From: Candidatus Woesearchaeota archaeon UBA525
GTDB lineage: Archaea > Nanobdellota > Nanobdellia > Woesearchaeales > UBA525
Assembly (NCBI GenBank): GCA_002498125.1
Contig: DAGG01000027.1
Span: 35,862 to 99,861, forward strand
Length of the DNA: 64,000 nucleotides
Direction of reading: 5' to 3'
The notes below the pieces were generated by a model. It worked only from the letters and a program-made list of their open reading frames with translations. It was not told the origin of the DNA and did no database searches. The position numbers and the translations under genes are program-made. Shown here piece by piece: positions 6,483-36,755 of the stretch; position 1 is the stretch's first letter; every line of letters begins with the position of its first letter.

Positions 6483-8210
6483 TCAAGAACGACGCTTTCT
6501 CATCGCGTACTTCCCCAAGAAGAATATCGCGACACCGGCACCGAAGACAGCGCCGAGACTGAAGAGGATTAATCCCTCGAGCACATGTGGCGGAATGTAG
6601 AACCGCTCCTCGCGCGGGAAGTAGATATCGAGATTGGAGAGCTCGAGCGCGTACTCCGAGAACGTCAGCGCACTATATGGATTGTCCTTGCGCAGGTCGC
6701 TCGCGTACTGCATGTAACTGTAGCCAAGGATGGGGAAGAAACCCTTATCCTGCTGCTTCTTGAGGATGAAGAGGTCTGCGTCGAGCTTCTGCTGCACGAG
6801 CGCATCCACACTGGCGCGGTCGACGGAGATCGCGTTAGCGAGCAGGTTCGCCTGTGCCTTGGATTTAGAAGCGGTGAAGATGCACAGTATCGGCTCGACA
6901 GCGGCCAAGCGTTTCGCCTCTTCGAGGAGGGTGTGGCTCTCGAGCACGGCCTGCGGAGCATAGAGTTCCACATAGCTGATGCGCTCCTCTGCCTCGCTGA
7001 TCTTGCTCAGGCATGCGCGCTGCAGGTAGAGTGGATCAAGCTGCACCGGTGTGCTGTCCATACCGAAGAACGTGCTCCAGCTGTGCGCGCTCAAGAGACG
7101 CTCCTGTGCGTACGCGAGAGAGTCACCGTCCGGATTGAGCGCGTCGACGGTATCGAGCAACTGCTGCGCCTCGCGCACGCGTTCCATCACTATGGCATAG
7201 GTCTCCAGGTCACCGATGGTCTCGATGGACCGTTCGCGTGTCTGCGTATCGAGCTCCTGCACCTGCACGCGTAATGCACGGTAGAGGTCGTGACGCGTGG
7301 TGTTGCTTGTGTTCTGCAGTAAGAGTCGCGCAAGCTCGATGTTCTTGCTGAAGCACAAGGATGCGCGGGAGTATGGGTTGCCGTTCACGTGCTCAATGCG
7401 CTGCGTGTAGTTGTTCGTATCATTGTATACTCTACCCATGGCCGCGACATCAGTCTCGAGCTCGGCACTACGGTCGCAGATCTCTGCCGAGATGCCACCC
7501 ATGCGCTCCGCGTACTCTTGCGGAACGACGAGATCAGGAAGCTCCTTGCGGTAGTCCTTGCCTGTGAACTCGTAGAGCGCCTCCTCGACTGTGCTGACGC
7601 GCACAACAGTCACCCGGTCATCGGAGAGCGTTGCGTCCACGCCATTCTGGAGCGGCAGCTGATCAGGCATTGACACATTTGTCGCATTGCTGGTATTGTC
7701 GGGGCTGGTCAGCGCGGGGATGAGCACCTTGCTGATGCCGGCGGATCTCGCGCCGCTCACCTTCGCAGTCACACCCGCCACAGGGCCGATGATGCCGCCG
7801 CTGTTGATCGTGCCAGTCATGGCAGTCTCCTGATCCAGCGGTTCATTGTCGAGCACGGCGACGGTAAGGACGGTGATGGCTGCTCCTGCGCTCGGCCCGC
7901 CGACTATGGCGCTGTTCGCGCGGATAGTGTAGAAGAAGTCGTAGCGGCCGCAGTCGACCTGCAGCATGTCGCACGCTATCTTATTCGCGTAGCGGACGCT
8001 CGCCTGCGTGTCGACACGCGTGAGCGGGAAACTATCGATGAATATCGCTCCGTTGCCAGGCCTGACCACGAGGTACAGATCTGCGGTACCACCTCGCAGG
8101 GTGCCTTCATCGGCGACAGTGAGAAGCGTGATATGTCCTGATTGCGCGTGCGCTGCAGCTACGAGGATGAGCGACAAGAGAAGGAGCATGGCAAATCGTG
8201 CGGCGTCCAT
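6483..8210 (-). CDS. S16 Lon-type peptidase domain protein, secreted/membrane anchored (no AAA module)
   Basis: GPSAGAA serine motif typical of the Lon proteolytic domain; N-terminal signal peptide; C-terminal TM helix plus basic tail. Confidence 0.55.
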   Translation of the reverse strand: MDAARFAMLLLLSLILVAAAHAQSGHITLLTVADEGTLRGGTADLYLVVRPGNGAIFIDSFPLTRVDTQASVRYANKIACDMLQVDCGRYDFFYTIRANSAIVGGPSAGAAITVLTVAVLDNEPLDQETAMTGTINSGGIIGPVAGVTAKVSGARSAGISKVLIPALTSPDNTSNATNVSMPDQLPLQNGVDATLSDDRVTVVRVSTVEEALYEFTGKDYRKELPDLVVPQEYAERMGGISAEICDRSAELETDVAAMGRVYNDTNNYTQRIEHVNGNPYSRASLCFSKNIELARLLLQNTSNTTRHDLYRALRVQVQELDTQTRERSIETIGDLETYAIVMERVREAQQLLDTVDALNPDGDSLAYAQERLLSAHSWSTFFGMDSTPVQLDPLYLQRACLSKISEAEERISYVELYAPQAVLESHTLLEEAKRLAAVEPILCIFTASKSKAQANLLANAISVDRASVDALVQQKLDADLFILKKQQDKGFFPILGYSYMQYASDLRKDNPYSALTFSEYALELSNLDIYFPREERFYIPPHVLEGLILFSLGAVFGAGVAIFFLGKYAMRKRRS

Positions 8211-16413: not shown

Positions 16414-17094
16414 GTGAAAAGAGACAATGCATATACAGTCATCATCGGCCTGATGCTGGCGGCGCTGTTCATCAGCAGCTTCAACATGTATACGTTGAGC
16501 AACCTGGAGATGTCCGCCCAGATGTCAGCCACCACAACGACAGGATCAGTGCAGACCGCGCTTGCGCAGTCGCCATCTGACGTGACGCCGAAGGGCGAGC
16601 CACGCATCTACGGCAAGGAGCTGGGAGTGGCATATGACCACGTGCACGCCAGCAACCCTAAGCTAGCGGATGCGACCATCAACAAGCTGGCAAAGCTCGA
16701 TGTGGACATCCAACTCACCGAGGACCAGAAGGCGCGCTACATCAATATCCTCTACAAGATGGATAACGGCATCTCCTGCGAGTACTGCTGCGGAGCTCGT
16801 GCCATCATCTTCGAGAACGGCGAGCCTGCGTGCGGATGTGCGCACAGCTATGCGATGCGTGGAGTAGCAAAGTACCTTATCACTGAGCACGGCAGCGAGT
16901 TCACCGACGCGCAGATACTAGAAGAAGCCGCGAAATGGAAGACACTCTTCTTCCCGACGCAGTCTGCAGCCAAGGCAGAGATCCTCAAGGCCCAAGGTAT
17001 CGAGCCGAACTACATCAACATCGGCAGCAACAAGTACCGCGGCATTGAGCAGGGCGCCGGCAGCGGCGGCGGCGGAATGGTAGGAGGATGCTAG
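16414..17094 (+). CDS. Cys-rich membrane-anchored protein ending -MVGGC
   Basis: N-terminal TM; CEYCCGARAI...PACGCAH cysteine cluster; Gly-rich tail ending GGGGMVGGC*. Confidence 0.5.
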   Translation: MKRDNAYTVIIGLMLAALFISSFNMYTLSNLEMSAQMSATTTTGSVQTALAQSPSDVTPKGEPRIYGKELGVAYDHVHASNPKLADATINKLAKLDVDIQLTEDQKARYINILYKMDNGISCEYCCGARAIIFENGEPACGCAHSYAMRGVAKYLITEHGSEFTDAQILEEAAKWKTLFFPTQSAAKAEILKAQGIEPNYINIGSNKYRGIEQGAGSGGGGMVGGC

Positions 17095-17103
17095 GTGATA
17101 CAC

Positions 17104-17346
17104 ATGGATGAAGAACATAAATCCCAGAAGTCCAAGCGCAAGACAGAGAGCTCAGCTCTCTTCTACGTCTTGATAGGCATGGTATGCCTGCTGCTCGTCT
17201 TCTCGACGGTGCAGACTGTGCAGATCATGAAGTTCAAGGAGAAAGTGAGCACCGCGAGCAGCGTCACCACTGTGGCGGCAGCAGCGCCAGCAGCGCAAGC
17301 GCCGGCACCGAGACCCGCGGCACCGACAATGGTCGGAGGGTGCTAG
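17104..17346 (+). CDS. small TM protein with Ala/Pro-rich tail ending -MVGGC
   Basis: 80 aa from the internal ATG; one TM helix; ends PTMVGGC*, identical to the upstream protein's C-terminus. Confidence 0.4.
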   Translation: MDEEHKSQKSKRKTESSALFYVLIGMVCLLLVFSTVQTVQIMKFKEKVSTASSVTTVAAAAPAAQAPAPRPAAPTMVGGC

Positions 17347-17347
17347 C

Positions 17348-17806
17348 ATGAAGCGCAACGGCTGGATAGCAACGGCAGCGGTGGCAGTCATCGCTATGGT
17401 GCTCATCTGGTTCGCAGTGAGTCCTGCTGAGGCCTCAGTGCTCGACGGCAAATCCGCTGTCGTGCACAAGGGCGACAGCTGCGGCTGCTGCAATGTGTAC
17501 GTCGGCTATGCAGAGAAGACCATGGCTGTCCAGGTGCTGAACAATGGCGAGGCCATCAAGAACCAGTACAATATCCCGACTGACCTCAGGAGCTGCCACA
17601 CGACAGTGGTCGATGGCTACTTCGTGGAAGGGCATATGCCCCTTGAGGCGATCGAGAAGCTGGTGACTGAGAAGCCCGACATCGCAGGCATCGCGTTGGC
17701 AGGGATGCCGTACGGCAGCCCGGGCATGCCAGGAGCAAAGCAAGGACCGTTCATCGTGTATGCGGTGAACAAGGACGGCACGTACCAGGAGTACATGCGG
17801 ATATGA
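17348..17806 (+). CDS. DUF411/CopG-like metal-binding protein
   Basis: Signal/TM anchor, CGCC motif and conserved His; the family is commonly found in copper-resistance clusters. Confidence 0.6.
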   Translation: MKRNGWIATAAVAVIAMVLIWFAVSPAEASVLDGKSAVVHKGDSCGCCNVYVGYAEKTMAVQVLNNGEAIKNQYNIPTDLRSCHTTVVDGYFVEGHMPLEAIEKLVTEKPDIAGIALAGMPYGSPGMPGAKQGPFIVYAVNKDGTYQEYMRI

Positions 17807-17830
17807 GCAGCGGAGAGGAGGGATGAAACC

Positions 17831-18382
17831 ATGAAAGTACCACCAAAAGCGGCATTATTCCCCCTCTCCATCCTTTTTTCCATTCTCTCTTCAATCCAGG
17901 TCCACGCCCACTGCCCGCTATGCACTATGGGTGCGGCGGCAGCAGCAGGCGGCGCGATGTGGCTCGGAGTCAGCGGCACCGTGGTCGCACTCTTCATCGG
18001 AGCGTTCGCGGTCAGCATGGGATTGTGGATCGGCCGCATAATCAAGAAGCAGTACATCCCGCACCAGACTGCGTGGATAACTCTCGTATCGTTCGCGACG
18101 ACAGCATTGCCGGTGCTGCCATTCATGATGTCTGGCACACCCGGCGACTACATCCCTATCTTCATCTCATGGGCGGGGGAGTACGGATCGCTCCTGAACA
18201 GGACGTACCTCATCAATATCCCCCTCATCGCTACGCTCGTCGGAGCAGGCATAGTGCTCGCGGCACCGTGGATGAGCAGGAAGATTACTGACTTGCGCGG
18301 CGAGACCCTGCCATACCAAGGAGTATCGCTCACGCTCATCATCCTCATCATCAGCGCCACGGCGCTCCAACTCATCATATGA
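17831..18382 (+). CDS. membrane protein with HCPLC motif
   Basis: Signal peptide, HAHCPLC motif, multiple TM helices. Confidence 0.45.
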   Translation: MKVPPKAALFPLSILFSILSSIQVHAHCPLCTMGAAAAAGGAMWLGVSGTVVALFIGAFAVSMGLWIGRIIKKQYIPHQTAWITLVSFATTALPVLPFMMSGTPGDYIPIFISWAGEYGSLLNRTYLINIPLIATLVGAGIVLAAPWMSRKITDLRGETLPYQGVSLTLIILIISATALQLII

Positions 18383-18831
18383 CCATGGATCCCATACTCA
18401 TAGCAGTCATCAGCATCACAACGGTATTCGTCGCCATGCTGCTGGTCAAGAAAGCGCTCGAGCGTCTCATCAAGCATCCCCTATGCGCCATATGCGTGGC
18501 TGTCAGCGTCACCTGGCTGACGCTGCTTGCGCTCAACATCATCGGAGCCTTCGATGACAAGGTGCTCATAGCGCTCCTCATGGGCCAGACAATCATAGGG
18601 CTGTACTACCTCATCGAGCAGAAAGCAGCAGAGCAGCTCATGGTGTTCCGCCTGCCACTCCTGCTCACGCTCACAGCAGCAGGGTACAGCATCATCATAG
18701 GCCGGCACTCATATACGACGATGGGATTCCTCGCAGTTGTCTGGGGAGCGTTCCTCGTCATCTTCGCGTTCAAGGACCGCGGCACACGCGCCTGGTTTAA
18801 CCGGGCAGTGGAGTGCTGCAAGAGGTGGTAG
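18379..18831 (+). CDS. membrane protein with CxxC (HPLCAIC) in TM1
   Basis: 4 TM; possible thiol-disulfide or metal-handling role. Confidence 0.45.
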   Translation: MTMDPILIAVISITTVFVAMLLVKKALERLIKHPLCAICVAVSVTWLTLLALNIIGAFDDKVLIALLMGQTIIGLYYLIEQKAAEQLMVFRLPLLLTLTAAGYSIIIGRHSYTTMGFLAVVWGAFLVIFAFKDRGTRAWFNRAVECCKRW

Positions 18832-18833
18832 AT

Positions 18834-18911
18834 ATGGAATGTTGCGGAAGCGATTGCTGTAAGAACAAGAAGGACAAGAAAGAGAAGAAAGAGGGCTGCT
18901 GTGAGAAGTAG
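18834..18911 (+). CDS. 25-aa Cys-rich peptide MECCGSDCCKNKKDKKEKKEGCCEK (metallothionein-like)
   Basis: Manual translation; three CC pairs; absent from the ORF track (<60 aa). Confidence 0.35.
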   Translation: MECCGSDCCKNKKDKKEKKEGCCEK

Positions 18912-19103
18912 CGCCTGGTTCGCCGCATGCGTCGGCATAGCCATCGTCGCGGCAGCGCTGTTCCTCTACACTGAACGGCCTCTCTTCTGGCTCCTGCTCC
19001 TGCTATGCCCTGCCATTCACCTATGGATGATGAAGAATATGCACAAGAGCGCGGACAATGATGGGGATAAGGGCGCAAGGAAGGATAAGCGGAGTTGCCA
19101 CTA

Positions 19104-19691
19104 ATGGACTGCTGCACGAAAAACGGAGAGACGGCGAAACGCAAGAGGCGGGGCGTGAGAGACCATCGACCATTCCTCTGGGGGCTTGGCGCCGCACTCG
19201 CCATGCTCGCGTTTTACACCGCGCTCCTGTCCATCCTGAATTCGCCTGTTCACGCGTGGGATGAGTTCGCGAAGATGTGGTACTGGATCACTGCCATCGC
19301 TCTCGGCTTCGGCCTGCAGATAGGGATGTACGCGCACATCAAGATAACGCTCAAGCACCGCGAGGGCACCGGCGCTGTCGCGGCCAGCGGCGGGATGTCC
19401 GGCGCGGCGATGGCGGCATGCTGCGCGCACCACCTGAGCGAAGTGCTGCCGCTCCTCGGCCTCGCTGCGCTATCGACGTTCCTCGTGCGCTATCAGTCCG
19501 CATTCCTCGCTGTAGGTCTTGCGTCTAACATCATCGGCATCATCATCATGCTGACACACATCAAGAAGCACGGCCTGTATGCGCGCGGGGGGCTGCTCGA
19601 TAGGCTCCTGCGCAAGCAGGACATGCTCCATGCTGCAGCAGCGCTCGCTGTCGGCGCGCTCATCGCGTTCAGCATCATAGGATTCATCTAG
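19104..19691 (+). CDS. membrane protein starting MDCC with internal AACCAHH motif
   Basis: Internal ATG gives MDCCTKNGE...; ~5 TM helices; second vicinal Cys pair. Confidence 0.45.
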   Translation: MDCCTKNGETAKRKRRGVRDHRPFLWGLGAALAMLAFYTALLSILNSPVHAWDEFAKMWYWITAIALGFGLQIGMYAHIKITLKHREGTGAVAASGGMSGAAMAACCAHHLSEVLPLLGLAALSTFLVRYQSAFLAVGLASNIIGIIIMLTHIKKHGLYARGGLLDRLLRKQDMLHAAAALAVGALIAFSIIGFI

Positions 19692-19700
19692 GAGGTAACT

Positions 19701-20141
19701 ATGGAAGAGAAGAACCTTGTCATCGGCCTGTGGACCATCATTGGTATCGGCCTCGTTTTCGCTGCGTACCTGCTCTTCGGGAGCCAGGACACAATCGCTG
19801 CGAGCAACGTACCGGCGGCAGCGCCAGGGAGCATCGTACGCACAGGCACGACAGATGATGGCGACGTAAGCGTCGACCTGACGCCGCTCGGCATCACCGA
19901 CGGGCATCTCGTCTTCGATATGGCGATCAACACCCATTCAGTCGACCTGAGCGGCATTGACCTGACGCGCGCTGCGCAGCTTGAGTACAACGGCAAGAAG
20001 GTGTACGCTGACGGCGCTCCGCAGTTAGGAGGCCATCACATATACGGCGGGCTCACATTCCCGGTCGAAGGCACGCCCCAGAGCTTCACAGTGACCATCA
20101 AGGGCATACCGAAGCAGCAGGAACGGGTCTTCAGGTGGTGA
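19701..20141 (+). CDS. membrane-anchored hypothetical protein
   Basis: SD-like ggagg 8 nt upstream; N-terminal TM followed by a beta-rich domain. Confidence 0.45.
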   Translation: MEEKNLVIGLWTIIGIGLVFAAYLLFGSQDTIAASNVPAAAPGSIVRTGTTDDGDVSVDLTPLGITDGHLVFDMAINTHSVDLSGIDLTRAAQLEYNGKKVYADGAPQLGGHHIYGGLTFPVEGTPQSFTVTIKGIPKQQERVFRW

Positions 20142-20275
20142 TGATGGACTGCTGCAAGCCAAAAGAGACGATGCCAGGACTGAAAGAGGAACCGAAGGAG
20201 AACGGCAGCAAGGTGCTCATCGCGGCGTTCCTCATCCTCGTGCTCATCGGAGGGCTGCTGCTCGTCTTCCTCTAA
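20141..20275 (+). CDS. 44-aa protein MMDCCKPKE... with C-terminal TM helix
   Basis: Manual translation; start overlaps the upstream stop (TGATG); not in the ORF track. Confidence 0.35.
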   Translation: MMDCCKPKETMPGLKEEPKENGSKVLIAAFLILVLIGGLLLVFL

Positions 20276-20329: not shown

Positions 20330-20521
20330 ATGAAGAGAATCGTTTTCGCAATGCTGCTCATCGGCGTGCTCTTGCTCGCTGGGTGCGCACAGAATGATGG
20401 ACAGCGCAGCAGTGACACATACGCACCGTACCAGAACTCGGTCGGAGGCGGCTGCGGAGTGGCAGCACCTGCGGAGCCAGTAGAAGCAATCACGAGCATC
20501 GCAGAAGTGCCTGCAGCATAG
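20330..20521 (+). CDS. small lipoprotein
   Basis: Lipobox LLLAGC; 63 aa. Confidence 0.4.
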   Translation: MKRIVFAMLLIGVLLLAGCAQNDGQRSSDTYAPYQNSVGGGCGVAAPAEPVEAITSIAEVPAA

Positions 20522-21041: not shown

Positions 21042-21815
21042 ATGTTGCCTTATGTGACTATACCATCGTGGAGCATCGGCCCGCTGCACATGAACCTGTA
21101 CGGCGTGATGTTCGCCAGCGGCGTGTTCGTCGCCGCGCTCCTTGCCGAACGTGAGGCGAAACGGCAAGGCTTCAGTGCCGAGATGGTGCAACAGCTGGTG
21201 CTCTGGATGATGCTCGGCATAGTCGTCGGCGCACGGCTATTCTATGTTCTGTTCTACTGGCCCGAGGATCTCCCACGCACGCTCATAGGCACCATCGCAG
21301 TCTGGAAGGGAGGTCTTGCTTTCCTGGGGGGCTTCCTCGGAGCGGTCAGCGCGGGGTATCTGTTCACAAGAGCGAAGAAGCTGCCGTTCTGGCGGCTCGC
21401 AGACATATTCACCATACCTCTCGTGATAGGACACATCATCGGCAGGATAGGTGACTACCTTACAGGAGCGCATCCTGGCGCGATCACAGATCTCCCCTGG
21501 GGCATCCCATTGCATGGAGCGATACGCCACCCGGTGGTCCTCTACGAGATACTCGGGCTTGTCATCATCGTGGCAGCGCTGTTGGTCCTGCGCAAGCGGC
21601 TGCGGGGCGATGGTATGCTATTCACGGCATATGTGACACTCTATGCGCTTCAGCGGCTCATCCTCGATGTGTTCAGAATCCCTGCAACCGATCCCCGCTA
21701 TCTAGGCATGACGCCTACGCAGATGGGCCTGGTCGTAATAGCTGCATTACTCATCATATACCAGTACAGAGGGCGCCGCAAGCAAAGTGCCGGATTCCGC
21801 AAGCGAACAGCATAA
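21042..21815 (+). CDS. lgt: prolipoprotein diacylglyceryl transferase
   Basis: SIGP...YG, GARLFYVLFY, WKGGLAFLGG and GRIGDY signature blocks collinear with E. coli Lgt. Confidence 0.8.
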   Translation: MLPYVTIPSWSIGPLHMNLYGVMFASGVFVAALLAEREAKRQGFSAEMVQQLVLWMMLGIVVGARLFYVLFYWPEDLPRTLIGTIAVWKGGLAFLGGFLGAVSAGYLFTRAKKLPFWRLADIFTIPLVIGHIIGRIGDYLTGAHPGAITDLPWGIPLHGAIRHPVVLYEILGLVIIVAALLVLRKRLRGDGMLFTAYVTLYALQRLILDVFRIPATDPRYLGMTPTQMGLVVIAALLIIYQYRGRRKQSAGFRKRTA

Positions 21816-21873: not shown

Positions 21874-22191
21874 AAATCTTGTTCATGTATGGGGGGATGC
21901 AAGTGCACAAACTGCAGCTGCAAGAGCTACTCGGCAGTTTTTGAGGCACTCGGAAACCAGAACCGACTGCACATCATCAACGCGCTCCGCAAGGAACCGC
22001 ATAACGTCAGCGAGATCATCGCCAAAACAGGCCTCGAGCAGACGTGCGTATCGCACTGCCTGCGCAAGCTCGAGGAAGGCGGCCTCGTTGATGTAGAACG
22101 CCAAGGGAAATTCAGGGTATACACACTCAACAAGAAGACTGTGGAGCCGCTGCTCCAGGCAATAGACCAGCATACGAAGGTGAAGAGATGA
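21871..22191 (+). CDS. ArsR/SmtB-family metalloregulator with N-terminal Cys cluster
   Basis: MKSCSCMGGCKCTNCSC followed by an ArsR HTH (NRLHIINAL...VSEI). Confidence 0.75.
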   Translation: MKSCSCMGGCKCTNCSCKSYSAVFEALGNQNRLHIINALRKEPHNVSEIIAKTGLEQTCVSHCLRKLEEGGLVDVERQGKFRVYTLNKKTVEPLLQAIDQHTKVKR

Positions 22192-25613: not shown

Positions 25614-26057
25614 ATGAAGAACACAGCACTTATCATCGCCGCACTGCTCATGATTATCGGCACCATCGCGTACATAGCGACCGGCGCTTACAAGGCACCG
25701 GAGATGGAGAGCCAAGGTCTTACCTTGTTCCCGGATGGGGAAGGAGAGCGGCTCTTTATCATGACCTCGCCTGAGGGACACATCAAGTTCTTCTACGAGA
25801 GCGCTGTGCCTATCGGCGAGCCGCGCGAAGGGTCTGCAGATGGTTACAGGACGCAGGATATCGATGGAGTAACGTACCAGCCGGTGCTCATCGGTAGCGC
25901 AGAGGCCGCAATGATGCGAGAGGAAAAACTCTTCTCGCAGCCAGGCGACACCATCAGCGGGTTCTTCGGCCAGGACGTCATCGTCGTAGGCGTGCTCGAG
26001 GAGACAGGCACATCGCTTGACATGATGCACGTGGTCCTACCTGGAGTGTTCCGTTGA
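25614..26057 (+). CDS. membrane-anchored hypothetical protein
   Basis: SD ggagg upstream; one TM. Confidence 0.4.
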   Translation: MKNTALIIAALLMIIGTIAYIATGAYKAPEMESQGLTLFPDGEGERLFIMTSPEGHIKFFYESAVPIGEPREGSADGYRTQDIDGVTYQPVLIGSAEAAMMREEKLFSQPGDTISGFFGQDVIVVGVLEETGTSLDMMHVVLPGVFR

Positions 26058-26428
26058 GAGCGCTGGGCGCGGTAATGCTCGCACTGCTACTTACTGCGTG
26101 CGCACAAACGCCCGCTGAGCGGCAGCAGGACCTCTCCCCCGAGCAGTTCAGAGAGTACATCTCGAATGACGGCGTCTTCGTCATCGACGTCCACATCCCT
26201 GAGCAGCAGCACATCCCCGGCACAGATGCTGTGATTCCGTATAACGAGCTGCGCATGCAATCACGGTCGCTGCCAGATGACCGGGATACCTCTATCGCAA
26301 TCTACTGCCGAAGCGGCAGCATGAGCGAGGAAGCGATGCAGACGTTCAAGGAAATGGGCTACACCGACGTCGTCCACCTCGAGGGCGGCCTGAACGCCTG
26401 GCAGGCGGCAGGTTATGAGGTAAAATGA
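26054..26428 (+). CDS. rhodanese-domain sulfurtransferase (lipoprotein)
   Basis: Lipobox LLLTAC; catalytic loop CRSGSMS. Confidence 0.7.
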   Translation: MRALGAVMLALLLTACAQTPAERQQDLSPEQFREYISNDGVFVIDVHIPEQQHIPGTDAVIPYNELRMQSRSLPDDRDTSIAIYCRSGSMSEEAMQTFKEMGYTDVVHLEGGLNAWQAAGYEVK

Positions 26429-34739: not shown

Positions 34740-34953
34740 TGATGCACACTAACCGCCTCAATTATATAAAATTATCTGGAAATACGAATAATACAGTTGA
34801 ATATTTCTTATATCTCAACACCATCACCTGAATCAAGCGGAGCAAAGGAGACGCAGAAGGCGTCTGCCCGACGCCAAAAACCGCTAATAGTACAGTAACT
34901 ACTACGAGAGAGTGACATAAGGGAATATTTTTAAATCGAAGGGATACCCCCAG

Positions 34954-35619
34954 GTGAACGACATGACCTACATGAACAGGTTGAAGGAACGCGCGAAGCA
35001 GCTCGCGAACAACGTCCGTCAGAAGGTAGAGGATGAAGGCGGCCTCGGCAACATCGTCGAGAAAACCACCCTCGAACTCAGCGAGAAGGCAGGAAAAGCT
35101 GCCGGACACGTGGCCAAAGCGATAGACGGAGCAATCAACTACGAAGGAGACAGCCTCAACCCGAAGGATATCTACAACGCAGGCACTGTCGACGTAGGTG
35201 CGACCGCGCAGAAGGCACGCGAGTTCGCAGGCAAAGGCGTAACACACACACGTACAGCCGCAGCGACGATAACTGATAAGGTCAAGACAGCAGCAGAGGA
35301 CGCGAAACACTACGCATCGGAGGTCAACGGAGCGATCAACGACATCGCGACAGGGCCAGATCACGTCGTGGGCATCGGCAACCGCTTCTACTGGGTCCGC
35401 TCGCACAGCAAGCTCGAGATCGGACAGGTGAAGCAGTACCTGACGACAATCTCCGCAGCCATCCCGCCGGCGACGACGGGCAGGCAGGAGGTCCTCACCT
35501 TCATCGCCGACAACGCAATCAGCACCGAAGGCAGGCTCTACGATCTCTGGGAGAAGCAGAAGATGCCAGAGCTGAAGGCGCTGACCTATATCGCGAATGC
35601 GCGCAACACTCATACATAG
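34954..35619 (+). CDS. hypothetical protein (operon gene 1)
   Basis: GTG/ATG start downstream of a TATA-like ATATTTTTAAAT; no motif. Confidence 0.45.
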   Translation: MNDMTYMNRLKERAKQLANNVRQKVEDEGGLGNIVEKTTLELSEKAGKAAGHVAKAIDGAINYEGDSLNPKDIYNAGTVDVGATAQKAREFAGKGVTHTRTAAATITDKVKTAAEDAKHYASEVNGAINDIATGPDHVVGIGNRFYWVRSHSKLEIGQVKQYLTTISAAIPPATTGRQEVLTFIADNAISTEGRLYDLWEKQKMPELKALTYIANARNTHT

Positions 35620-35645
35620 TACTAGGATACTAGGAGGAAACAACA

Positions 35646-36755
35646 ATGGCAGAACTCAAAATTCAGAAGGAGATGTCCAAGCTAGAGACGCTCCGCGCGC
35701 AGCGCAAGCGCGACCTCTCAGGGGTCTACAGTGGCCTCGACCAGAGGACCAACGACCTGCTCGGCGCACGCAACAAGGAGCAGGCACGCACCACGGCCCA
35801 GAGTCATCGCGCGAAGCTGGATGAAGGACTGAGCCACTTCCAGAGCTACAGGCAGGACATCGCGACGCTGAGCGCAGGGCTCCAGGAGAACCTCGAGCTC
35901 TACGTTGAGTTTGCGAACAAGTTCGAGAACTACCAGGGCAAAGAGAAGGTCGTGAAGGTCATCGGTATGAAGGGCCTCGCGAACAAGTGGCGCCACCAGC
36001 GCATCTCCACACAATCGCCCAAGGAGAACCTGCAGCAGATCGTCGACTACGGCATGCAGCTCGTCCGCGAGCTTGAGGATGTCCGCGAGGAGGCTATCAA
36101 CCAGTACGAGAGCCTGCAGGGCAGCGTCGACATGATCACTGTGAAGCTTAAGGATTACCAGCCACTCGAGGCAGAGCTCAAGGAGCGCCTCGATGCGATG
36201 AAGGCAATCTACGACGAGAAGAACGGGAAGTTCAAGAACGCTTCACCGACGGAGCAAGTCACTCTCGCAGACGAGATGAACAACCTGCACAAGCAGTTGA
36301 CCACAATCCAGGACGAGTACGACACCGCCCTGACTGTGTACAGCCAGGCGCAGCAGGCGCTCCAGAGCAACATCGAGTCGCGCGACGCGTTCGACCAGAT
36401 GCAGCGCGACCTCGGACGCCAGGCGAACATGATCCAGGAGAAGCTGGAGAACGTCGTCAAGATCTACGAGGCAGCACCCGAAGCGCTGAAGGTGATGATG
36501 AAGACGAAGGGCACGGAGACGCTCGACAAGAGCATCAACTACGCCACAAGTGAGTCCGTGAGGACCATCATCAAGGCAGCCAGCGGAGTCAACGACGCCA
36601 CCCTCGCACGCGAGGAGATCCAGCTCGTTGACGCTGCTGTAGTGCGTGAGTTCATGGACGAGACCACGCGCCGCAAGAATGACTTCGAGGCCCGCTATCT
36701 AGGCATCCGCGAGAAGGCACTGGAGAGCCAGGCCGAGCGCTACGCCGCGAAGTGA
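35646..36755 (+). CDS. long coiled-coil protein (operon gene 2)
   Basis: SD ggagg upstream; 369 aa, heptad-rich throughout. Confidence 0.5.
   Translation: MAELKIQKEMSKLETLRAQRKRDLSGVYSGLDQRTNDLLGARNKEQARTTAQSHRAKLDEGLSHFQSYRQDIATLSAGLQENLELYVEFANKFENYQGKEKVVKVIGMKGLANKWRHQRISTQSPKENLQQIVDYGMQLVRELEDVREEAINQYESLQGSVDMITVKLKDYQPLEAELKERLDAMKAIYDEKNGKFKNASPTEQVTLADEMNNLHKQLTTIQDEYDTALTVYSQAQQALQSNIESRDAFDQMQRDLGRQANMIQEKLENVVKIYEAAPEALKVMMKTKGTETLDKSINYATSESVRTIIKAASGVNDATLAREEIQLVDAAVVREFMDETTRRKNDFEARYLGIREKALESQAERYAAK

Follow-up and report, generated by a model that had tools for sequence, protein, structure and literature searches.

Cysteine-pair starts in a woesearchaeal copper island

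The DNA analyzed here, referred to below as the window, is a stretch of 64,000 nucleotides (nt) from Candidatus Woesearchaeota archaeon UBA525 that contains a copper island. Within the island, three open reading frames (ORFs) have products that begin M-(D/E)-C-C: a peptide of 25 amino acids (aa), here called D; a polytopic membrane protein, F; and a small tail-anchored protein, H. The whole region (16414-20275 and onward) forms a tightly packed operon on the + strand, and the copper setting claimed for these starts in a preliminary description is borne out by nearby genes for CopA, HMA proteins, a multicopper oxidase, a cupredoxin, a DUF411/CopG-like protein with CGCC, and a DUF2933 protein. 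The genes that carry the starts, and those interleaved with them, are listed below, with TM denoting a transmembrane helix.

18379..18831, + strand: C150, a 5-TM protein with CAIC in TM2 and a predicted cytoplasmic C-tail, ..AVECCKRW (E145-W150 at 18811-18828)
18834..18911, + strand: D, a Lys/Glu-rich 25-aa peptide, MECCGSDCCKNKKDKKEKKEGCCEK, with three CC pairs
18901..19104, + strand: E, a small DUF2933 membrane protein with LLLLLCPAIHLWMM and a C-terminal SCH
19104..19691, + strand: F, a 195-aa, 5-TM protein, MDCCTKNGE..., with a disordered, basic, predicted cytoplasmic N-tail (MDCCTKNGETAKRKRRG..) before TM1
19410..19433, + strand: predicted intramembrane MxxCCxHH site of F in TM3, M103-A-A-C106-C107-A-H109-H110
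19701..20141, + strand: G, 146 aa, predicted to have an N-in single TM and an extracytoplasmic beta-sandwich
20141/20144..20275, + strand: H, a 44/43-aa tail-anchored protein, (M)MDCCKPKE..., with a predicted cytoplasmic N-tail, (M)MDCCKPKETMPGLKEEPKENGSK, and one C-terminal TM

All three ORFs are present as first described, the three CC pairs of the 25-aa peptide were confirmed, and the second CC of the large membrane protein (AACCAHH, C106-C107) does fall within a TM segment, predicted TM3. The three genes are not consecutive, as had been stated, because E lies between D and F and G lies between F and H.

The M-(D/E)-C-C starts in the window are not a product of chance. The codon pattern ATGGANTGYTGY (ATG-GAN-TGY-TGY) occurs three times on the two strands of the window, against 0.10 ± 0.30 copies in shuffled sequence, and three copies were reached in none of 100 shuffles. 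All three copies sit at a gene boundary: D starts 2 nt past the C150 stop, the ATG of F overlaps the stop of E (TAATG), and the start of H overlaps the stop of G or follows it by 0 to 3 nt. Since Cys makes up only 0.9% of residues outside the island, a CC at a fixed position has a chance expectation of ~8e-5. Outside the island, only one of the ORFs of 100 aa or more contains a CC dipeptide, an odd ORF with 19 Cys; this 294-aa ORF (34762-35646, - strand) has two CC pairs and may be spurious.

The starts of F and H share an identical 12-mer, ATGGACTGCTGC. We considered a repeated DNA element as the source of this identity and rejected it: the repeat extends over only 12 to 14 nt and corresponds to the motif codons. 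Those 14 nt spell out x-[DE]-C-C-[KT], and they recur at the C terminus of C150, where they encode V-E-C-C-K.

The Shine-Dalgarno sequences typical of the operon are of the GGAGG or AGGTG type and lie 5 to 6 nt upstream of the start. Both D (AGAGGTGG with 5-nt spacing) and H (AGGTGG, 5 nt before ATG 20144) follow this norm; H was called as a gene by JGI and D was not. The ATG of F at 19104 is preceded only by GGAG at 9 nt, and an alternative GTG start at 19155, with AGAGG at 6 nt, would give a product beginning MRDHRPF..., parallel to homologue starts such as MKRHIL.. and MKKPVL... Even so, ATG 19104 is probably the start of F, because a perfect ATGGACTGCTGC placed exactly on the upstream stop would be very unlikely in a spacer; the TAATG overlap also suggests translational coupling to E. 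In an AlphaFold model of F (predicted local distance difference test [pLDDT] score of 83.9), residues 1 to 21 have pLDDT values of 55 to 60 and no secondary structure, and the basic part of the N-tail (KRKRRG) is disordered ahead of TM1. JGI start calls trim conserved N termini in this island. That of B183, a membrane protein encoded upstream of C150, was placed at 17927 rather than 17831, losing a signal segment and HAHCPLC, and that of F was placed at 19203 (about M37) rather than 19104, cutting off the first half of TM1.

Terminal cysteine pairs and the F-G pair in related clusters

The gene directly upstream of D encodes C150, which ends ECCKRW and belongs to a family without a Pfam model. 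A HMMER search of 1.84 billion representatives returned 377 relatives, 135 of them full-length; a C-terminal [IL][IV]-[EA]-C-C-[KR]-x-W closes 133 of the 135, and every one has an early CxxC. C150 itself is placed in the family by both features, CAIC and ECCKRW. B183 carries an invariant AHCP-x-C motif, mostly AHCPLCT, and a metagenome scan with a four-sequence B183 alignment recovered at least eight loci. Where downstream sequence is present, B183 is usually followed directly by C150 or by a soluble protein with a similar ending. In 10 loci (numbered with an L prefix here and below), the slot past B183 is filled by this unrelated soluble protein, 157 to ~210 aa long and ending KKI[VI][DN]CCKE(W), examples being L002 3857-4390, L088 5483-6064, L089 1054-1527, and L052 2815-3360; the soluble DCCKEW family had no match in Pfam. 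In L072, the C150 homologue stops early and a 23-aa ORF, MKFLSKVKNFLKKVLKKFEECCD (..EECCD; 7094-7165), follows at once. Its CC tail is either a separate micro-ORF or joined via a frameshift, an arrangement that parallels D and E in the window.

Seven of the 25 DPANN-type clusters (L002, L043, L052, L060, L088, L089, and L090) encode small, unrelated N-in membrane proteins with an N-terminal CC tail. A 51-aa protein of the woesearchaeal locus L002 (MDCCGGKHHKHGG..TM) is encoded directly past the G gene, which is the slot of H. Orthologues of X80, an N-in single-TM protein of the island, begin MDCCKEKV in L052, MDCCKTENEEGCCK in L090, and MEHECCK in L060, so that 3 of 17 members of that family have an N-terminal CC. 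The other examples are MGCCSSN...TM between CopA and B183 in L088, a 20-aa MHDHCCRQAGKEHCCQEETK in L043, and MECCHPKHNKK.. in L089, which starts 2 nt past the stop of ..IIDCCKE in the same arrangement as in the window. Matches to M[DE]CC in L009, L017, L032, L045, and L067 were internal to long secreted proteins and were excluded. These proteins, encoded near F genes, have a signal peptide, an Ig-like N-terminal part, and a C-terminal TM with a coiled coil, and their internal D-[IV]-M-[DE]-C-C-[LMV] lies at L009 1508, L017 5107, L032 12335 and 10643 (the latter on the - strand), L045 1674 (- strand), and L067 6644.

The slot of D is also occupied elsewhere. In L022 (5813-5968) and L083 (2556-2711) it holds a 51-aa YHS-like protein ending KKHGCCH, with a YHS motif that scores below threshold (22.6 bits versus 30.3). 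Small YHS- or treble-clef-like proteins ending GCC[HG] occur in 11 loci of archaea and bacteria (L022, L083, L010, L016, L024, L041, L066, L070, L077, L078, and L085). D itself has no YHS/TRASH motif (P-V-C-G-M ... F-C-S-x-x-C), and it matched none of the metallothionein hidden Markov models of Pfam, its 6 Cys in 25 residues being arranged as three isolated CC pairs with a K/E-rich linker. Searched against Pfam, none of D, F, and H had a family match at E ≤ 1. In three Nitrospirota loci (L012, L025, and L029), TM-anchored peptides end H[GS]CC[HG].

These comparisons support the MxCC start as a nonrandom and recurrent motif, one that is better defined as a terminal tag at either end of a protein, its core often [DE]-C-C-[KR] and its wider form [DE]-C-C-[KR/G/T]. 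Its carriers in the window are the C terminus of C150, peptide D, and the N-tails of F and H, and the vicinal-Cys tail sequences of the window include MDCCKPKETMPG, MECCGSDCCKNKKDKKEKKEGCCEK (D), and FNRAVECCKRW (C150). Conservation in orthologous clusters holds to the extent of the seven DPANN-type clusters with M[DE]CC-type tails, but it is sporadic, as the X80 family illustrates.

The membrane protein F belongs to a widespread family. It returned 185 matches from 5.8 billion proteins, and its 548 loci in GTDB species representatives span DPANN archaea, Methanosarcinales, Nitrospirota, Chloroflexota, Spirochaetota, and others; the closest relative found is 52% identical. The window protein has all the features of this family, namely 5 TM, a Q in TM2, M-x-x-C-C-x-H-H...P in TM3, and the partner G adjacent or fused. 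Invariant positions in a 58-sequence alignment (A4) are Q72, M103, C106, C107, H109, H110, P116, G119, and G145, of which H110 is only nearly invariant in a 23-sequence alignment (A1). Each of 120 homologues has exactly one CC, always at the position of C106-C107, and in F the M-A-A-C-C-A-H-H stretch lies midway along predicted TM3 (H90-118). A Pfam scan of 58 family members found no family and no Mer match, and NCBIfam gave F only a noise match (TIGR02865; E value of 0.7) and no Mer model. Compared with the PDB by profile search of its sequences and by fold search, F had no relative. The fold matches that were returned are generic or designed helical bundles only, and no transporter family could be assigned from them.

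The N-terminal CC was not conserved on this family. It precedes TM1 in none of the 120 proteins and in none of 80 loci, so the MDCC of F is lineage-specific, and the contigs of the closest relatives (P0003, P0004, and P0005) carry no MxCC ORFs. Some of the homologues do have N-terminal metal-binding domains, HMA in P0113 and HMBD in P0119 and P0120, at the position of the window MDCC tail, which is consistent with a module that captures metal on behalf of a membrane protein.

Judging from gene order and fusions, G is the functional partner of F. Their genes adjoin each other or are fused in 54 of 80 loci, with either one first, and G is fused to the C terminus of F in 13 aligned homologues; of the 80 loci, 23 have CopA nearby and 16 have Lgt. 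A word-index search with G gave only two matches, and its relatives were taken from the fusion proteins and from phmmer searches of the translated loci. The invariant residues of G include T78-H79, D87, and G111-H112-H113, and its fold matches generic beta-sandwiches, the copper chaperones CrdA, PCuAC, and ScsB-N among them. Because soft-metal ligands are predicted in the bilayer and His ligands outside it, F-G looks like a two-part membrane device in which F would be a transporter. Counted in 548 GTDB species representatives of archaea and bacteria and often beside CopA and Lgt, the pair makes a good candidate for a new membrane system that translocates or inserts copper. In the bacterial locus L094 (5001-9685), F-G stands beside a CcdA/DsbD_TM gene, a PCYCGC protein, a FixG-like Fer4_5 protein, and CcmH, neighbors that hint at cytochrome or cuproenzyme maturation rather than resistance.

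A possible role for the terminal tails

We put at about even odds the reading that the M-(D/E)-C-C starts of the island belong to a wider vicinal-Cys tag, borne at the extreme N or C termini of unrelated proteins, that would bind metal. Because the tag recurs in related archaeal clusters, the tails are probably an undescribed copper-catching element rather than a chance feature. All of the tags sit on flexible charged tails that the positive-inside rule and tail-anchor topology predict to be cytoplasmic and beside the membrane; the placement draws on KDRGTRAWFNR-AVECCKRW in C150, KRKRRG in F, the N-tails of H and X80, and the soluble peptide D. In the reducing cytoplasm, adjacent thiolates together with Met1 or neighboring tails would bind Cu(I) or Ag(I), either at low coordination number or in small Cu(I)-thiolate clusters. 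The tails would thereby concentrate metal at the inner face of the membrane, and ligand exchange would hand it to membrane partners, either the site in F or the CopA ATPase; the HMA-membrane protein and CopA encoded downstream are candidate Cu(I) acceptors. The intramembrane M-x-x-C-C-x-H-H of F would then pass the metal to the His site of the extracytoplasmic domain of G. We infer metal binding, the identity of the metal, and the direction of transfer alike. More tentatively, it is possible that terminal [DE]-C-C-[KR] tags form an unrecognized Cu(I) relay code that loads F-G as a new class of transporter, independent or upstream of CopA, to supply or detoxify copper. Should Cu(I) binding by the tags be borne out, no smaller metal-capture module would have been described on a membrane protein, and soft-metal trafficking proteins, among them micro-proteins overlooked by gene callers, could be sought by a simple sequence rule.

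Several observations weigh against this reading. The N-terminal CC is missing from every F homologue, and 14 of 17 X80 family members do without it; being so sporadic, the N-terminal tag cannot be essential to F or X80. The residue preceding the CC is Ala instead of Glu in about half of the C150 tails, so an acidic residue is not obligatory. H (44 aa) matched only itself among the 5.8 billion proteins, and since its family is thus untraceable by sequence, orthology was judged by position and architecture; a single orthologue, that of L002, was assigned in this way. Finally, F has an ambiguous start codon, and D may be part of E rather than a gene of its own.

Vicinal Cys pairs are already known as Cu(I)/Hg(II) ligands, and several characterized systems provide precedents. 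In COX17, one Cu(I) is bound by the two adjacent Cys of a CCXC motif (PMC7909247). COX17 is a small protein with its adjacent Cys on a flexible N-terminal stretch, and it binds and passes on Cu(I), as is proposed for the window tails, with polycopper thiolate oligomers possible (PMC7909247). It differs in its twin-CX9C CHCH fold and its location in the intermembrane space, whereas the window CC pairs are at residues 3 and 4 or at the C terminus of proteins that are membrane-anchored or only 25 aa long. By inspection, no CX9C spacing occurs in D, in residues 1 to 25 of F, or in H.

Among mercury systems, CC pairs are found in TM helices of MerT and MerF. A Cys pair in a TM helix of MerE is needed for mercurial uptake (PMC5715351), and a C-terminal vicinal Cys pair is essential in MerA (PMC3466566). 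In MerA, the pair sits on a mobile terminal tail that takes up the soft metal and hands it on to a buried site (PMC3466566), and the window tails would act in a similar way. F resembles MerE, a small membrane protein, in that a TM helix contains a Cys pair, C106-C107 in F; the likeness is one of mechanism only. Unlike the Mer systems, the window has a copper context, and F has 5 TM with CC followed by HH in TM3; no mer genes are present, and the window proteins, F and H included, matched no Mer model of Pfam or NCBIfam.

The regulator CueR has a conserved C-terminal CCHH whose C-terminal Cys are reported to serve as auxiliary ligands when Hg(II) is bound (PMC6899792), and the effect of deleting its CCHHRAG fragment on Ag(I) binding has been studied (PMC9542689). 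CueR of Escherichia coli thus places CC(HH) at the extreme C terminus of a cytoplasmic Cu(I) protein, as the tags do, but it is a MerR-type DNA-binding regulator, whereas the carriers in the window are membrane proteins or micro-proteins with [EA]CC[KR]xW or M[DE]CCK. CopG (DUF411), which has a thioredoxin-like fold, forms a Cu4 cluster through CxCC (PMC7558416). It too has a vicinal-Cys copper motif, and a CGCC member is encoded in the window operon; in CopG, though, the CxCC is internal to a folded periplasmic thioredoxin-like domain and not on a terminal cytoplasmic tail. The HMA (MxCxxC), HMBD, and YHS domains are, like the tails, cytoplasmic N-terminal capture modules on membrane transport proteins, but they are folded domains of 40 to 70 residues, whereas the tag amounts to 4 to 6 residues on a disordered tail. 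Searches of the literature on DUF2933 and on DPANN copper clusters turned up no description of a terminal CC motif.

Of the competing explanations, one concerns the anatomy of D and E, and we consider it possible, if the less likely case: the two would be a single DUF2933 gene split by a +1 frameshift (a mutation, an assembly error, or a programmed event), with MECC..CC..CC as its cytoplasmic N-tail. E matches DUF2933 (PF11666) at 27.1 bits against a cutoff of 21 (E value of 4.7e-6), and LLLLLCPAIHLWMM in its TM2 aligns with the LLLCPxxHxxMM motif of relatives, in which C58, H62, and M66 are invariant. The DUF2933 relatives in F-containing loci have an N-tail of 15 to 35 residues with H-x-H, and a CC at the start of TM1; E has neither, its N-tail being 6 residues long with A-C at the TM1 position. 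D ends within the start region of E, overlapping its GTG by 11 nt in the adjacent frame, and covers, in that other frame, the region of the H-x-H tail of relatives. A hypothetical +1 fusion would be 89 aa long, compared with 52 to 88 aa in aligned relatives and a maximum of ~100 aa in other loci. Because the frames overlap, E lacks a tail, and the fusion length is normal, D may be the detached N-tail of E. The order in L044 (C150, then a full-length DUF2933 gene, then F) fits this as well. On the other hand, E has its own GTG start (18901) with AGAGGG at 5 nt, and the junction has no homopolymer or obvious slippery site. Identical copies of the neighbors H, G, and C150 are present in JGI, NCBI, ENA, and Logan, which may all derive from the same reads. 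D may thus be an independent micro-ORF or the detached N-tail of E, but its product begins MECC either way, and a fusion alters the anatomy of the locus and not the function proposed for the tail.

Less probable is a redox role, in which the terminal CC would be the cytoplasmic end of a thiol-disulfide or electron relay running via the membrane CxxC motifs of C150 and B183 to extracytoplasmic proteins with a thioredoxin fold or Cys motifs (DUF411/CopG and X226), or else a vicinal-disulfide redox switch. C150 does combine a TM-helix CxxC with a terminal CC in nearly all full-length relatives, AHCP-x-C is invariant in B183, CopG-like proteins have a thioredoxin-like fold (PMC7558416), and a CcdA/DsbD_TM gene adjoins F-G in L094. 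Against this, the known relays DsbD/CcdA, DsbB, and VKOR use CxxC or separated Cys rather than terminal vicinal pairs, and C150, B183, and F match none of the Pfam models of relay families. The tags are also found on tiny tail-anchored peptides, D-like peptides have His-rich stretches typical of metal binding, and copper genes dominate the setting.

A partly artefactual origin we likewise judge unlikely. Under this explanation D would be untranslated and F would start at GTG 19155, leaving MDCC in a 50-nt spacer; only H and the C150 tail would be real CC termini, and the three M-(D/E)-C-C genes would be a local oddity of one lineage with scant functional significance. The JGI calls include neither D nor the longer F, the Shine-Dalgarno sequence of GTG 19155 equals the operon norm and gives a homologue-like N terminus, and the MDCC tail is found in no F homologue examined. 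The F relatives found are at 52% identity or less, and a search with H returned only itself. The 12-nt ATGGACTGCTGC, however, is identical to the start of H and falls exactly on the upstream stop, which is very unlikely in a spacer given 0.10 expected per window. D has a typical Shine-Dalgarno sequence and spacing, a small Cys-tailed protein occupies its slot in L022 and L083, and L089 repeats the order ..DCCKE, stop, 2 nt, MECC...

It is very improbable that the [DE]CC[KR] termini serve recognition or modification (for example, anchoring by S-acylation or docking to a common partner) rather than metal binding. In favor of such a role, a stereotyped amphipathic K/R-rich helix followed by CC and K-x-W resembles a docking or membrane-interface element, and the tag is common to unrelated proteins. 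Against it, there is no acyltransferase candidate, the Lgt of the island has an adjoining conventional lipobox substrate (LLAGC, 20330-20521), most carriers are membrane-anchored already, and His-rich and YHS-like sequences lie beside the CC in relatives.

The surrounding island

The remaining features of the island that bear on the tails are the following.

16414..17094, + strand: X226, with CEYCCG...ACGCAH motifs and a C-terminal MVGGC, the conserved first structural gene of the DPANN-type island
17104..17346, + strand: X80, an N-in single-TM protein ending MVGGC, whose window copy starts MDEEHKSQ, without Cys
17348..17806, + strand: DUF411/CopG-like protein with CGCC (CxCC); Pfam PF04214, 83.1 bits against a cutoff of 27
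17831..18382, + strand: B183, a membrane protein with HAHCPLCT after a signal-like segment
22394..25604, + strand: HMA-membrane protein (RCCG) and P1B-1-type CopA with the motifs CPC, YN, and MALSS

Upstream of X226 are genes for a cupredoxin, a multicopper oxidase, and two regulators. Downstream of H are a lipoprotein, a 157-aa protein, Lgt, an ArsR-type regulator, an HMA protein, the HMA-membrane protein, and CopA, whose motifs, by what is established for P1B-ATPases, indicate specificity for Cu(I)/Ag(I). The Pfam score and the CxCC both assign the product of 17348-17806 to DUF411/CopG, for which a copper cluster is predicted from the family. The window contains no rRNA, and its probable DPANN origin is judged from the closest relatives of the island, which are in metagenome-assembled genomes of Woesearchaeota, Micrarchaeota, and Iainarchaeum. 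What is known of copper handling in DPANN and other uncultured archaea comes almost solely from annotation transfer, and at least five conserved families of the island (F, G, C150, B183, and X226/X80) have no Pfam match. The soluble DCCKEW proteins that take the C150 slot in related loci make a sixth, and all six are built on Cys/His motifs.

A few further features of the island were noted in passing. X226 and X80, consecutive families, share a conserved [MQ]-V-G-G-C carboxy terminus (17 loci), and the CEYCCG...ACGCAH motifs of X226 are reminiscent of the PCYCGC family. The lipoprotein with a lipobox (LLAGC) at 20330-20521 and the Lgt homologue at 21042-21815 both lie within a probably archaeal copper island. 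The ArsR/HTH_5 regulator (21889-22191) starts MGGCKCTNCSCKS, a Cys-rich N-tail like those of thiophilic-metal ArsR/SmtB sensors. At the edge of the island, a rhodanese lipoprotein is encoded at 26054-26428, and a homologue of it adjoins the MDCC ORF of L032.

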